Shown one piece after another: positions 11,504 through 26,159 of a stretch of 64,000 bases of DNA. Made by a program: the position numbers and the translations under genes. Source of the stretch: Escherichia coli (GTDB lineage: Bacteria > Pseudomonadota > Gammaproteobacteria > Enterobacterales > Enterobacteriaceae); NCBI RefSeq assembly GCF_048403405.1, contig NZ_CP183129.1; one strand, written 5' to 3'. How positions within the stretch are numbered: the stretch's first letter is position 1; the number at the start of each line of letters is the position of its first letter. The notes beneath the pieces are model-generated. The model did no database searches. It was not told the DNA's origin and saw only the letters and a program-made list of their open reading frames with translations.

Positions 11504-12466
11504 TTAATACAGTTTTTTCGCGCAGTCCAGCCAGTCGCCTTTGAACGGACGCTTCATGTTTTCGATAGCGTCGATGATGTCGTGGTGAACCAGCTGTTCG
11601 TTCTGGATACCTACGCAACGACCGCCGTAACCTGCCAGCAGCAGATCGATAGCGTAAGCGCCCATACGGGAAGCCAGAATACGGTCGTAAGGCACCGGAG
11701 AACCACCGCGCTGGATGTGGCCCAGCACAGTTGCGCGGGTTTCACGACCGGTTTCTTTCTCGATGAAATGCGCCAGTTCGTCAACATCACACATATGTTC
11801 GGTAATCGCCACGATCGCGTGTTTTTTACCTTTCGCGATACCCGCTTTGATTTCGTTTACCAGGTCTTCACGGCTGAATTCAACTTCCGGAACTACAACG
11901 AATTCACAGCCACCGGCAATGGCCGCAGCCAGGGTCAGATCGCCACAATAACGACCCATCACTTCCACCACGGAAATACGCTGGTGAGAAGAAGAGGTAT
12001 CACGCAGACGGTCGATCGCTTCTACAACGGTGCTCAGCGCAGTGAAGAAACCGATAGTGTAGTCAGTGCCTTTGATGTCGTTGTCGATAGTGCCAGGCAG
12101 ACCGATGCACGGGAAGCCCATTTCGGTCAGACGCATTGCACCCATGTAGGAACCGTCACCGCCGATAACCACCAGCGCGTCGATACCACGTTTTTTCAGG
12201 TTTTCGATAGCCACGGCGCGGATGTTCTCGTCGCGGAATTCCGGGAAACGCGCAGAACCGAGGAACGTACCACCACGGTTGATCATGTCAGACACGCTGT
12301 AACGGTCTAGCTGTACCATACGGTCTTCATACAGACCCAGATAGCCGTCATAAATGCCCATTACTTCCAGACCTTCTGTCAGCGCAGAACGAACAACCCC
12401 GCGAATTGCGGCGTTCATGCCTGGCGCATCACCGCCGCTTGTCAACACACCGATTTTCTTAATCAT
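11504..12466 (-). CDS. pfkA: 6-phosphofructokinase I (320 aa)
   Basis: Translation from [29 protein letters not shown] is canonical PfkA. Confidence 0.98.
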
Positions 12467-12646
12467 GACTACCTCTGAACTTTGGAATGCAAAATGAAAT
12501 CTGTTGCCGGAAGTCTTCTTGCACATCGAAGTGATCCAACGAATGTGCAAATAGTATAACAATCACTTCCTGCTGAATTGATTCAGGTCAGGCCAAATGG
12601 CGGTATTTTATACACAAAATGCGGGTCTGGCTCTCTTTTATACTGA

Positions 12647-13549
12647 TTATGAAAGCATAGACCGTTTACCCTCCCTGGGTACGACGGAACAGGGGTCCTG
12701 ATGGATAATCACATCCGATCCCGGAAAACGCCGTAAAATAGCCTGCTCTACCTGATCCGCCACCATATGTGCCTGAACCAAAGGCAGAGAGTCTTCCATT
12801 TCCAAATGAATCTGAATAAAGCGGGTCGGCCCTGACTGCCGCGTGCGAAGATCGTGAGCGCCGCTAACACCCGGCCAGGAAGTCACGATATCAATAATTT
12901 CTTGCCGTTCTTCATCAGGCAATGCGCGATCCAGTAATGACTGTACCGCCTCATATCCCATGCGTAACGCGCTATATAAAATATAGATGCCGATTCCCAA
13001 TGCAAACAGAGCATCGGCGCGATGCCAGCCATACCAGGACAACCCCAGCGCCAGCAGAATTGCGCCGTTCATCATAACATCAGACTGGTAATGTAGCATA
13101 TCAGCCCGCACCGCCTGGCTTTGCGTCCGGCGCACCACCCACCGCTGAAACGAGACAAGGATAATCGTACAAATTAGCGCCACAATTGTCACGATAACCC
13201 CGACGCCTGGATCTGTCATCGGTGTTGGAGATACCAGATGTTGAATACCCGTCAAAAAGAGGAATAGTGCCGAACCGGAGATAAACATACTTTGCGCCAG
13301 CGCCGCGAGGGACTCAGCTTTACCGTGACCAAACGAGTGATTATCGTCGGCAGGTTGCAGGGAATATCGCACCACCAGTAAATTCGTCAACGACGCGCCG
13401 ATATCCACCAGCGAATCCACCAGCGCGGCGAGAATACTCACCGACCCGGTATACCACCATGCAAAAATTTTAATCAGCAATAGCAGCGAAGCCATCGCCG
13501 TCGCAGCAATCGCCGCCCGACTGACCAGCCGTCCATAAGATTGATTCAT
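12647..13549 (-). CDS. fieF: Cation diffusion facilitator FieF/YiiP (300 aa)
   Basis: Translation from [49 protein letters not shown]... CDF family. Confidence 0.95.
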
Positions 13550-13630
13550 AAATACTCCCGCTATCAACTGACGCTAGTATAACGGAAGCAAATCATCTGC
13601 AATGCATTAAGCAGCAGGCAAATTGAGGAT

Positions 13631-13657
13631 AAAAAAAACCCCCACATCATGTGGGGG
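13631..13657 (-). terminator. Rho-independent terminator downstream of cpxP
   Basis: CCCCCACATCATGTGGGGG stem with 8-nt T-run on minus strand. Confidence 0.75.
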
Positions 13658-13697
13658 AAGACAGGGATGGTGTCTATGGCAAGGAAAACAGGGTTTA

Positions 13698-14198
13698 CTA
13701 CTGGGAACGTGAGTTGCTACTACTCAATAGCTTCAACGATGAACTTTTTTGCCATTGCGTCACGTCGCGCAACTGCTCCATTCGTTGTTGATGTTTCTCG
13801 TTTAAAACCGCTTGCTGCTCCGGCGTTAACAGGCGATACATTTGGTTGCGGACTTTTGCCATCTCAACCTGACGAGCAATTTGCTCATTCGCCATTTTTT
13901 CTGCCTGCGCGCGCACAGCGTTTTCATCAAAATTTTCTGCGGTGACAAGGCGATGCATTGTCTCCAGTTCGCTAACATTAACAGGAGGCTGTTCGTGCCG
14001 GGCCTGTTGCATAAGATCTCGCATCTGCTGACGCTGATGTTCGGTTAAACTTATGCCGTCGAACATATGGCTCTGCGTACTGCGCTGCGTAAGTTCTTCA
14101 CCCGGATGCCAGTTATCGCCTGAACCGACTTCAGCAGCGTGGCTTAATGAACTGACTGCCAGCGTTGAGGCCATGACGGCAGCGGTAACTATGCGCAT
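13698..14198 (-). CDS. cpxP: Periplasmic Cpx pathway inhibitor/adaptor CpxP (166 aa)
   Basis: Signal peptide; LTxxQ-type helical protein; divergent from cpxRA. Confidence 0.93.
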
Positions 14199-14277
14199 CA
14201 TTTGCTCCCAAAATCTTTCTGTCGCGATTCAACGATAGAGAGTTTACGATTCAGGCTGCAAACATGCGTCAGGGGGT

Positions 14278-14292
14278 GTAAAACAACGTAAA
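14278..14292. promoter_or_regulatory. CpxR-P binding box in divergent cpxP/cpxRA promoter region
   Basis: GTAAA-N5-GTAAA direct repeat (GTAAAACAACGTAAA) in the 149-bp cpxP-cpxR intergenic region. Confidence 0.7.
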
Positions 14293-14347
14293 GTCATGGA
14301 TTAGCGACGTCTGATGACGTAATTTCTGCCTCGGAGGTATTTAAACA

Positions 14348-15046
14348 ATGAATAAAATCCTGTTAGTTGATGATGACCGAGAGCTGACTTCCCTATTAAA
14401 GGAGCTGCTCGAGATGGAAGGCTTCAACGTGATTGTTGCCCACGATGGGGAACAGGCGCTTGATCTTCTGGACGACAGCATTGATTTACTTTTGCTTGAT
14501 GTAATGATGCCGAAGAAAAATGGTATCGACACATTAAAAGCACTTCGCCAGACACACCAGACGCCTGTCATTATGTTGACGGCGCGCGGCAGTGAACTTG
14601 ATCGCGTTCTCGGCCTTGAGCTGGGCGCAGATGACTATCTCCCGAAACCGTTTAATGATCGTGAGCTGGTGGCACGTATTCGCGCGATCCTGCGCCGTTC
14701 GCACTGGAGCGAGCAACAGCAAAACAACGACAACGGTTCACCGACACTGGAAGTTGATGCCTTAGTGCTGAATCCAGGCCGTCAGGAAGCCAGCTTCGAC
14801 GGGCAAACGCTGGAGTTAACCGGCACTGAGTTTACCCTGCTCTATTTGCTGGCACAGCATCTGGGTCAGGTAGTTTCCCGTGAACATTTAAGCCAGGAAG
14901 TGCTGGGCAAACGCCTGACGCCTTTCGACCGCGCTATTGATATGCACATTTCCAACCTGCGTCGTAAACTGCCGGATCGTAAAGATGGTCACCCGTGGTT
15001 TAAAACCTTGCGTGGTCGCGGCTATCTGATGGTTTCTGCTTCATGA
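14348..15046 (+). CDS. cpxR: Envelope stress response regulator CpxR (232 aa)
   Basis: OmpR-family receiver plus winged-helix translation; overlaps cpxA start by 4 nt (ATGA). Confidence 0.97.
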   Translation: MNKILLVDDDRELTSLLKELLEMEGFNVIVAHDGEQALDLLDDSIDLLLLDVMMPKKNGIDTLKALRQTHQTPVIMLTARGSELDRVLGLELGADDYLPKPFNDRELVARIRAILRRSHWSEQQQNNDNGSPTLEVDALVLNPGRQEASFDGQTLELTGTEFTLLYLLAQHLGQVVSREHLSQEVLGKRLTPFDRAIDMHISNLRRKLPDRKDGHPWFKTLRGRGYLMVSAS

Positions 15047-16416
15047 TAGGCAGCTTAACCGCGCGCATCTTCGCCATCTTCTGGCTGACGCTGGCGCTGG
15101 TGTTGATGTTGGTTTTGATGTTACCCAAGCTCGATTCACGCCAGATGACCGAGCTTCTGGATAGCGAACAGCGTCAGGGTCTGATGATTGAGCAGCATGT
15201 CGAAGCGGAGCTGGCGAACGATCCGCCCAATGATTTAATGTGGTGGCGGCGTCTGTTCCGGGCGATTGATAAGTGGGCACCGCCAGGACAGCGTTTGTTA
15301 TTGGTGACCACCGAAGGCCGCGTGATCGGCGCTGAACGCAGCGAAATGCAGATCATTCGTAACTTTATTGGTCAGGCCGATAACGCCGATCATCCGCAGA
15401 AGAAAAAGTATGGACGCGTGGAACTGGTCGGTCCGTTCTCCGTGCGTGATGGCGAAGATAATTACCAACTTTATCTGATTCGTCCGGCCAGCAGTTCTCA
15501 ATCCGATTTCATTAACTTACTGTTTGACCGCCCGCTATTACTGCTGATTGTCACCATGTTGGTCAGTACGCCGCTGCTGTTGTGGTTGGCCTGGAGTCTG
15601 GCAAAACCGGCGCGTAAGCTGAAAAACGCGGCCGATGAAGTTGCCCAGGGAAACTTACGTCAGCACCCGGAACTGGAAGCGGGGCCACAGGAATTCCTTG
15701 CCGCAGGTGCCAGTTTTAACCAGATGGTCACCGCGCTGGAGCGCATGATGACCTCTCAGCAGCGTCTACTTTCTGATATCTCTCACGAACTGCGCACCCC
15801 GCTGACGCGTCTGCAACTGGGTACGGCGTTACTGCGCCGTCGTAGCGGTGAAAGCAAGGAACTGGAGCGTATTGAAACCGAAGCGCAACGTCTGGACAGC
15901 ATGATCAACGATCTGTTGGTGATGTCACGTAATCAGCAGAAAAATGCGCTGGTTAGCGAGACCATCAAAGCCAACCAGTTGTGGAGTGAAGTGCTGGATA
16001 ACGCGGCGTTCGAAGCCGAGCAGATGGGCAAGTCGTTGACGGTTAACTTCCCGCCTGGGCCGTGGCCGCTGTACGGCAATCCGAACGCCCTGGAAAGTGC
16101 GCTGGAAAACATTGTTCGTAATGCTCTGCGTTATTCCCATACGAAGATTGAAGTGGGCTTTGCGGTAGATAAAGACGGTATCACCATTACGGTGGACGAC
16201 GATGGTCCTGGCGTTAGCCCGGAAGATCGCGAACAGATTTTCCGTCCGTTCTATCGGACCGATGAAGCACGCGATCGTGAATCTGGCGGTACAGGTTTGG
16301 GGCTGGCGATTGTTGAAACCGCCATTCAGCAGCATCGTGGCTGGGTTAAAGCGGAAGACAGCCCGCTGGGCGGTTTACGGCTGGTGATTTGGTTGCCGCT
16401 GTATAAGCGGAGTTAA
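15043..16416 (+). CDS. cpxA: Envelope stress sensor histidine kinase CpxA (457 aa)
   Basis: HAMP, HisKA (SHELRTPLT) and HATPase regions present. Confidence 0.97.
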   Translation: MIGSLTARIFAIFWLTLALVLMLVLMLPKLDSRQMTELLDSEQRQGLMIEQHVEAELANDPPNDLMWWRRLFRAIDKWAPPGQRLLLVTTEGRVIGAERSEMQIIRNFIGQADNADHPQKKKYGRVELVGPFSVRDGEDNYQLYLIRPASSSQSDFINLLFDRPLLLLIVTMLVSTPLLLWLAWSLAKPARKLKNAADEVAQGNLRQHPELEAGPQEFLAAGASFNQMVTALERMMTSQQRLLSDISHELRTPLTRLQLGTALLRRRSGESKELERIETEAQRLDSMINDLLVMSRNQQKNALVSETIKANQLWSEVLDNAAFEAEQMGKSLTVNFPPGPWPLYGNPNALESALENIVRNALRYSHTKIEVGFAVDKDGITITVDDDGPGVSPEDREQIFRPFYRTDEARDRESGGTGLGLAIVETAIQQHRGWVKAEDSPLGGLRLVIWLPLYKRS

Positions 16417-16439
16417 ACTCGGCGCAGAGCCGTCCCCTT

Positions 16440-16620
16440 CGGGGTGAAGACAACAGGTCAGCACTGTGCGAACTGATACCCTCACCCCGGCCCTCTCCCT
16501 GAAAGGGCGAGGGGGAAAAACGTAGCCCTGTTCAGCAACGGAGCTGAGCACCGCTCCGGACAGTCCCCTCGCCCCTCTGGGGAGAGGGTTAGGGTGAGGG
16601 GAAAAATTCAGCACAATGCA
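16440..16620. repeat. GC-rich compound imperfect palindrome between cpxA and yiiM
   Basis: CCCTCACCCCGGCCCTCTCCC...GGGCGAGGGGG mirrored by CCCCTCGCCCCTC...GGGAGAGGGTTAGGGTGAGGGG about 80 bp away. Confidence 0.6.
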
Positions 16621-16671
16621 AACGGCACTGCTCTCACCGGAAACCATGCCAGATTTCGTATTAAGGCAGAC

Positions 16672-17346
16672 TTATTTTCCCCACAACCGGCGGGAAAAAT
16701 CTTCGATCTTGCCGCTCAGTCGGCGCTTTTGCATCGTCCGCGTCCAGCTTTTCGATAACCCGGCGGCGGAGAGTAAACGGTGATACTGCTCGTCATCAAA
16801 CGGCATATGCCATGCGATGGCGGCAGCCTCCTGCACGGTCACATCACTGACACGGGAAACCAACTCCAGCGGCGCATCAGCAGATACCAACCCTGGCGCA
16901 ATCACGCTATACAACCACCCCACTTTACCCGTGTTTTGCATCAACTGCGCTATATCGCTGATATCAAAATGGTAATTGAGTTTATAGCAAGGTGAGCGTG
17001 GCTGGCTGACCTGAATTAATGCCTCTCCCCAGCGGAAAATATCGCCAATATAAACATTACTTTCCGTCAGACCGTCGGTTGAGAGATTTTCGCCAAACGC
17101 AGGCGCAACAAACAACTCCGCCTGTTCCGGAAATTCCCGCGCCCAGTAGAGATAGTGCTCACGAGGATAATGACACAGCGCTCTGTCTGGCCCGCCGTGA
17201 ACCTTTTTCTCCGCCTGCTCGTCACCTTCCAGCCCCAGCTCCGTCAGCATCAACTCACCATCAACCTGGATTTTAGCAATTGCGCTGGGTTTGCCTTCGG
17301 GATAAGCCTGAATCTTGCCTGTGTATACATCAACCGGATATCGCAT
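16672..17346 (-). CDS. yiiM: MOSC-domain protein YiiM (224 aa)
   Basis: Translation from MRYPVDVYTGKIQAYPEGKP...; MOSC family; synteny. Confidence 0.9.
   Translation of the reverse strand: MRYPVDVYTGKIQAYPEGKPSAIAKIQVDGELMLTELGLEGDEQAEKKVHGGPDRALCHYPREHYLYWAREFPEQAELFVAPAFGENLSTDGLTESNVYIGDIFRWGEALIQVSQPRSPCYKLNYHFDISDIAQLMQNTGKVGWLYSVIAPGLVSADAPLELVSRVSDVTVQEAAAIAWHMPFDDEQYHRLLSAAGLSKSWTRTMQKRRLSGKIEDFSRRLWGK

Positions 17347-23146: not shown

Positions 23147-26159
<3,013 letters not shown>

Follow-up and report, generated by a model that had tools for sequence, protein, structure and literature searches.

The DNA analysed here, referred to as the window, is a 64-kb stretch from Escherichia coli. 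Between 11.5 and 17 kb it carries pfkA (- strand), fieF (-), cpxP (-), an intergenic spacer, cpxR (+), cpxA (+) and yiiM (-), which is the arrangement found at 4.103-4.108 Mb in K-12 MG1655, in reverse complement. The divergent pair cpxP and cpxR share one short control region, and the features of this region and of the genes on either side of it are as follows:

13631..13688, - strand: cpxQ small RNA, from the cpxP mRNA 3' UTR (placed by transfer of the annotated K-12 positions 4106330-4106387)
13698..14198, - strand: cpxP, periplasmic inhibitor/adaptor of the Cpx pathway (NCBIfam NF007687, 215 bits, cut-off 160)
14199..14347, no strand assigned: cpxP-cpxR divergent intergenic control region, 149 bp, equivalent to K-12 NC_000913.3 4105671-4105819
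14205..14209, - strand: cpxP ribosome-binding site GGGAG, read from the sequence; 14205-14208 at least 95% conserved
14333..14337, + strand: cpxR ribosome-binding site GGAGG, 10 nt upstream of the ATG at 14348; invariant
14348..15046, + strand: cpxR, response regulator of the OmpR/PhoB family, which binds the box (NCBIfam NF008199, 508.6 bits, cut-off 341)
15043..16416, + strand: cpxA, sensor histidine kinase (NCBIfam NF007007, 824.7 bits, cut-off 486)

The products of cpxP, cpxR and cpxA each score above the NCBIfam equivalog cut-off, and the identities agree with the K-12 annotation. The gene content is that of the Cpx feedback module, with cpxP and cpxRA diverging from one short spacer and with all of CpxP, CpxR and CpxA intact. 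The spacer length of 149 bp presumes that cpxP begins with the ATG at 14198-14196, as in the K-12 annotation. The sequence at this point reads ATGATG, with an in-frame ATG at 14201-14199 that lies one codon upstream of the annotated start, and the mechanically called open reading frame is therefore 167 amino acids long, compared with the annotated 166. At the other end of the transcript, CpxQ is described in PMC4817254 as a small RNA yielded by the cpxP 3' UTR, and it would be driven from the cpxP promoter. The cpxQ sequence has a clear terminator hairpin at 13657-13639 (-). An Rfam search over 12000-17000 at the gathering threshold matched zero families, CpxQ included.

The strain is not K-12, the cpxP-cpxA region being 99.1% identical, and 250 bp around the spacer are the same as in K-12 MG1655 at each base, with the 149-bp spacer 100% identical. 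CpxP, CpxR and CpxA show zero amino-acid differences from their K-12 counterparts. The K-12 MG1655 cpxP-cpxRA region (NC_000913.3 4105671-4105819) thus shares gene order, boxes and proteins with the window, and the element itself is without difference. A first-pass annotation of this DNA, made from the sequence, had proposed a CpxR box in the spacer and had staked the proposal on conservation of the motif at the corresponding K-12 position, where it proves to be conserved along with its surroundings. Among complete E. coli genomes, 5,425 of 5,426 carry the spacer at 99% identity or better. The search returned 5,427 matches, two of them on records labelled plasmids, and one of the 5,426 genomes gave no match. 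A local departure from K-12 is found further downstream, in the convergent spacer between cpxA and yiiM, which is 255 bp long here and 105 bp in K-12. The stretch at 16420-16671 does not align to K-12, is GC-rich and contains palindromic stretches (CCCTCACCCCG / CGGGGTGA and GGGTGAGGGG); it looks like an intergenic repeat element.

The CpxR sites within or overlapping the cpxP-cpxR spacer are as follows:

14278..14292, + strand: CpxR-P box 1, GTAAA-ACAAC-GTAAA, a perfect consensus; the published 'cpxR/cpxP1' site, reading towards cpxR
14258..14272, + strand: CpxR-P box 2, GCAAA-CATGC-GTCAG, a degenerate match, published as 'cpxR/cpxP2', between -25 and -39 relative to the cpxP start
14258..14292, + strand: four direct pentamers in a 10-bp register, GCAAA at 14258, GTCAG at 14268, GTAAA at 14278 and GTAAA at 14288
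14229..14247, - strand: reported third CpxR-P site, approximate, GTAAACTCTCTATCGTTGA, reaching +5 of cpxP (PMC9753035, after Yamamoto & Ishihama 2006)

Direct reading places GTAAAACAACGTAAA at exactly 14278-14292 (+), where two direct GTAAA pentamers stand 5 bp apart, as the definition of a CpxR box has it. In a pattern scan of both strands of the window, GTAAANNNNNGTAAA has a single exact match, which is this one. The canonical CpxR box that the first-pass annotation had placed at 14278-14292 of the 149-bp cpxP/cpxRA spacer is confirmed by both. Shuffles of the window give a chance expectation of 0.11 exact GTAAA-N5-GTAAA matches per window, with at least one match in 10 of 100 shuffles, and scaling from the shuffles gives a chance of about 2.6e-4 for an exact motif in the 149-bp spacer. 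When one mismatch is allowed, the window holds 4 matches and 3.5 are expected; this count is at chance level, so it is the exact match alone that stands out.

Table S1 of PMC9600279 gives 41 published CpxR sites, and those left after removal of the cpxP/cpxR pair were made into a 39-site log-odds matrix for scanning, a check that the first-pass annotation had suggested. With this leave-out matrix box 1 reaches 19.14 bits, the highest score among 127,972 positions on both strands. Such a rank is expected for a perfect consensus and is not independent proof, because many of the training sites were first picked for their resemblance to the consensus and the matrix is partly circular. The runner-up in the window scores 14.71 bits, and the top training site 19.17 bits. 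The next matches in the window are at 42891-42905 (-, 14.7 bits), 23219-23233 (+, 13.5 bits) and 12723-12737 (+, 12.6 bits). The first of these falls within an open reading frame of 617 amino acids and the last within fieF, and these two are probably not promoter sites.

Both boxes in the spacer have been published. Among the known sites in Table S1 of PMC9600279, GTAAAACAACGTAAA appears under the name 'cpxR/cpxP1' and GCAAACATGCGTCAG under 'cpxR/cpxP2', with De Wulf et al. 2002 credited for both. Box 2 scores 8.72 bits with the leave-out matrix (rank 49) and has a column conservation of 98%, and the in-register 15-mer between the two boxes, at 14268-14282, scores 9.33 bits (rank 32). Box 1 is thus the right half of a four-pentamer block that extends over 14258-14292. 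In the region of the reported third site (14229-14247, - strand), whose limits are approximate, no 15-mer scores above 3 bits by the weight matrix.

The position of these sites relative to cpxP depends on its transcription start, which can be placed from the literature:

14233, - strand: cpxP transcription start (+1), derived from the published PcpxP(+5) construct; K-12 4105785
14246 to 14241, - strand: candidate cpxP -10 element TAAACT, at -13 to -8 from +1; T-A-x-A-C-T conserved

Table S10 of PMC9753035 gives a PcpxP sequence (-60 to -1), which stops at -1, and a PcpxP(+5) sequence, which runs on to +5; the latter, a 65-mer, has an exact match at 14229-14293 on the - strand. Relative to this start, box 1 extends from -45 to -59, with its centre at -52, and box 2 from -25 to -39. 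By a rule of Price & Raivio 2009, as it is related in PMC8831704, a CpxR box should be no further than about 100 bp from the start of a Cpx-regulated gene, and box 1 lies within that distance of the cpxP start. The promoter is described in PMC9753035, again citing Yamamoto & Ishihama 2006, as sigma-70 dependent and as carrying three sites for CpxR-P, of which one extends to +5.

No -35-like hexamer is present at the position of box 2. Downstream of it, TAAACT is likely to be the cpxP -10 element, judging from its spacing and from a per-column conservation of 1.0, 1.0, 0.40, 1.0, 1.0 and 1.0 over 58 distinct spacers. A different hexamer, TATCGT, was predicted as the cpxP -10 in PMC3946193; it was rejected here, as it runs into the published +1 and the A at its second position, the key base, is kept in only 19% of spacers. 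A consensus promoter scan over 13550-14450 detected no strong sigma-70-like promoter, and such a scan is uninformative for activator-dependent promoters. PMC4817254 describes the cpxP promoter as the most strongly Cpx-induced one, and Table 1 of PMC9600279 gives a 19- to 60-fold induction of cpxP in strains that carry cpxA24 or overproduce NlpE.

On the cpxR side, the elements that may constitute the promoter are as follows:

14297..14302, + strand: candidate cpxR -35 element TGGATT, 4 bp downstream of box 1; 93-100% conserved
14320..14325, + strand: candidate cpxR -10 element TAATTT, 17 bp after TGGATT; 100% conserved over 58 distinct spacers

The combination of TGGATT, 17 bp and TAATTT appears to be the best candidate for the cpxR promoter. 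Box 1 would end 4 bp upstream of its -35 element, which is a normal position for an activator of the OmpR/PhoB type and is consistent with the scoring of the site as an activator. A second -10-like hexamer on this strand arises from symmetry in the region. An inverted repeat CGTAAA[C/G]TC (GAGTTTACG / CGTAAAGTC) is present at 14240-14248 and 14287-14295, and it contains one -10-like hexamer per strand, TAAACT directed towards cpxP and TAAAGT directed towards cpxR. The latter (14289-14294) sits inside box 1 and mirrors the cpxP -10. With TAAAGT as the principal cpxR promoter, CpxR on the box should obstruct transcription and not assist it. Since the site behaves as an activator, TAAAGT is ranked below TAATTT as the main cpxR -10, and it is treated as a candidate for a minor or alternative cpxR promoter.

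Conservation was assessed with a representative-genome scan using CpxP, from which the closest 80 loci in other Enterobacteriaceae species were taken; 79 of these cover both the spacer and the start of cpxR. In all 79 loci the spacer measures 147-155 bp, and each locus contains exactly one GTAAA-N5-GTAAA, which is found in the spacer, is identical over the 15-mer and lies 53-55 bp from the cpxR ATG. Over 58 distinct spacers, identity to the window stays at or above 95% for 32 bp at most, at 14266-14297, a run which contains box 1. Averaged over columns, conservation is 1.000 in box 1, 0.980 in box 2 and 0.991 in the four-pentamer block, with 0.905 for the spacer as a whole. Neutral change was gauged from the four-fold degenerate sites of the first 120 cpxR codons, which are 57.7% identical to the window; just 5% of these sites reach 95% conservation. 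This comparison indicates that box 1 is under strong purifying selection, like most of the spacer; as the spacer is highly conserved throughout, conservation alone cannot isolate box 1.

The sole poorly conserved patch in the spacer is at 14306-14311 (mean 0.41, 16-78% per column, over 58 distinct spacers), and it falls between TGGATT and TAATTT, in the presumed promoter spacer. It reads as the palindrome GACGTC in this strain and is bounded by invariant blocks on both sides. Beside it, at 14313-14319, is an invariant GATGACG. Among the loci compared, that of Enterobacter sp. EA-1 (CP025776.1) has a normal spacer and box, and the first 120 residues of its CpxR are 74% identical to those of the window, while the other loci are at least 95% identical. 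This divergence may be an assembly error or a frameshift.

The extent of the invariant run bears on what the box encodes. The ACAAC spacer and the G-rich flank of the box are invariant in 79 species and are not common to CpxR sites elsewhere, so that the 32 bp at 14266-14297 (at least 95% invariant) include bases which vary among other CpxR sites. An extra constraint over the box besides CpxR binding, imposed by a second factor or by elements of both divergent core promoters, would account for these invariant bases, and the inverted repeat, which sets the -10-like hexamers symmetrically and has box 1 lying within the mirror-symmetric pair CGTAAACTC and CGTAAAGTC, is of the kind that such a constraint might involve. 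However, nothing retrieved points to a second factor, the entire spacer is strongly conserved at this phylogenetic depth, and two adjacent CpxR dimers together with two core promoters in 149 bp may suffice. An extra constraint is considered unlikely, though less so than the alternatives below. A specific version of it is slightly less probable again, namely that the block encodes more than CpxR pentamer recognition, through either an overlapping second cpxR promoter, which CpxR-P would silence while activating the downstream one, or a second factor.

It is very improbable that the box serves cpxP only, with cpxRA transcribed independently of it, in which case the site would be silent on autoregulation. 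cpxP is the far stronger responder, and the -10-like TAAAGT inside the box is ill-suited to activation from that promoter. Nor did the literature searched yield a cpxR start: the available portions of the Cappable-seq and SMRT-Cappable-seq supplements hold no entries for cpxR, cpxP or positions 41056xx-41058xx, and a full-text literature search for the candidate cpxR start coordinates gave no match. Against these points, mutational footprints at K-12 cpxRp assign the site an activator role, and CpxR was the protein identified on the DNA by mass spectrometry (10.1101/2025.05.13.653802). Positive autoregulation of cpxRA is stated by several sources, the same work among them, and the distance from the box to the cpxR ATG is fixed at 53-55 bp in all of the species compared. 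The suggestion that a short AT-rich consensus has simply been matched by chance, with no regulatory role, can draw on the shortness of that consensus, on the one in ten shuffles with an exact match and on the chance rate of one-mismatch matches, but it is practically negligible given that the motif sits in the one spacer where it is expected, at the small probability calculated above, that 79 of 79 species carry the 15-mer unchanged against 58% identity at neutral sites, and that this is a published, experimentally supported site with footprint and mutagenesis data in the literature.

The reading adopted here is that 14278-14292 is a high-affinity CpxR-P site common to the divergent cpxP and cpxRA promoters, in a circuit expected to be K-12-like, and this is held with close to full confidence, with no finding that speaks against it. 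The site and the three proteins are identical to those of K-12, and the circuit is therefore expected to work as it does in K-12. Intact Cpx autoregulation in this strain, which the first-pass annotation had deduced from the motif, is likewise supported by the K-12-identical site, CpxP, CpxR and CpxA, function being assigned through identity to strains where it has been demonstrated. The strongest output of box 1 is cpxP, the negative-feedback arm, and the second output is cpxRA autoactivation.

By analogy with other regulators of the OmpR/PhoB family, two CpxR-P dimers would bind head to tail on the four pentamers, along one face of the helix. The perfect box 1 would be occupied first, and the weak box 2, standing in for the cpxP -35, would be filled cooperatively. 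As box 2 lies where the -35 is missing, CpxR-P is predicted to recruit RNA polymerase to an otherwise nearly silent cpxP promoter, and this recruitment would lead to the very strong Cpx-dependent induction of cpxP and CpxQ. In the direction of cpxRA, CpxR-P at box 1, about 4 bp upstream of the likely -35, would contact RNA polymerase and give positive autoregulation. Because CpxP inhibits CpxA, one site would drive both an amplifying loop, through cpxRA, and a damping loop, through cpxP, whose transcript also gives rise to CpxQ.

The site is already known. It is a textbook regulatory site, identical to that of the reference strain, and represents no new biology. As a positive control, it indicates that a reading from sequence alone recovered an established regulatory site at the right coordinates. 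For the Cpx feedback loops, in which cpxRA amplifies and CpxP/CpxQ damp, neither the DNA site nor the proteins are altered compared with K-12, and expectations based on K-12, or a cpxP-promoter reporter, should transfer to this strain.

Tandem activator sites with a 10-bp phasing are also found for OmpR at ompF and ompC and for PhoB at the pho boxes. The block described here is like these in having direct-repeat half-sites at each helical turn, adjacent sites of graded affinity, and a proximal site that replaces a weak or absent -35. It is unlike them in its recognition sequence and regulator, and in that one block serves two divergent promoters.

Another parallel is the cpxR-cpxP spacer of Yersinia pseudotuberculosis, in which the CpxR~P DNase I footprint begins GTCAG...GTAAA, and a GTAAA-N5-GTAAA about 55 nt upstream of cpxR has been called a bona fide site (PMC3158067). 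Shuffling of this box reduced CpxR~P binding in gel shifts, and poor cpxR expression was also reported, as data not shown (PMC3158067). The box of the window is likewise 55 nt from the cpxR ATG, a figure that is exact here when measured from the end of the box, whereas bases in the spacer and flanks differ, the footprint being gtcagggcatgtaaagctga in Yersinia and GTCAGGGGGTGTAAAACAAC here. In Pseudomonas, CpxR sites were found at the cpxP and muxA promoters by comparative genomics, and CpxR relies on its phosphorylation site for activation (PMC5063474). As in the window, a GTAAA-N(4-8)-GTAAA is located upstream of a cpxP orthologue that adjoins cpxR (PMC5063474). However, these are distant orthologues, with CpxP 25% identical, and the likeness is one of consensus and gene position.

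A natural rearrangement of the spacer was detected in one clinical E. coli isolate, 23AR0151 (NZ_CP195448.1; sputum, New Zealand), where an insertion of the IS903B family, at 1476-2444 of the locus compared, interrupts the cpxP-cpxR spacer. The insertion point is just to the left of the equivalent of window position 14255 and separates the cpxP core promoter from the CpxR boxes. In this isolate the box still adjoins cpxR, and cpxP is displaced from it by about 1 kb, an arrangement in which the induction of cpxP and CpxQ is probably uncoupled from CpxR.
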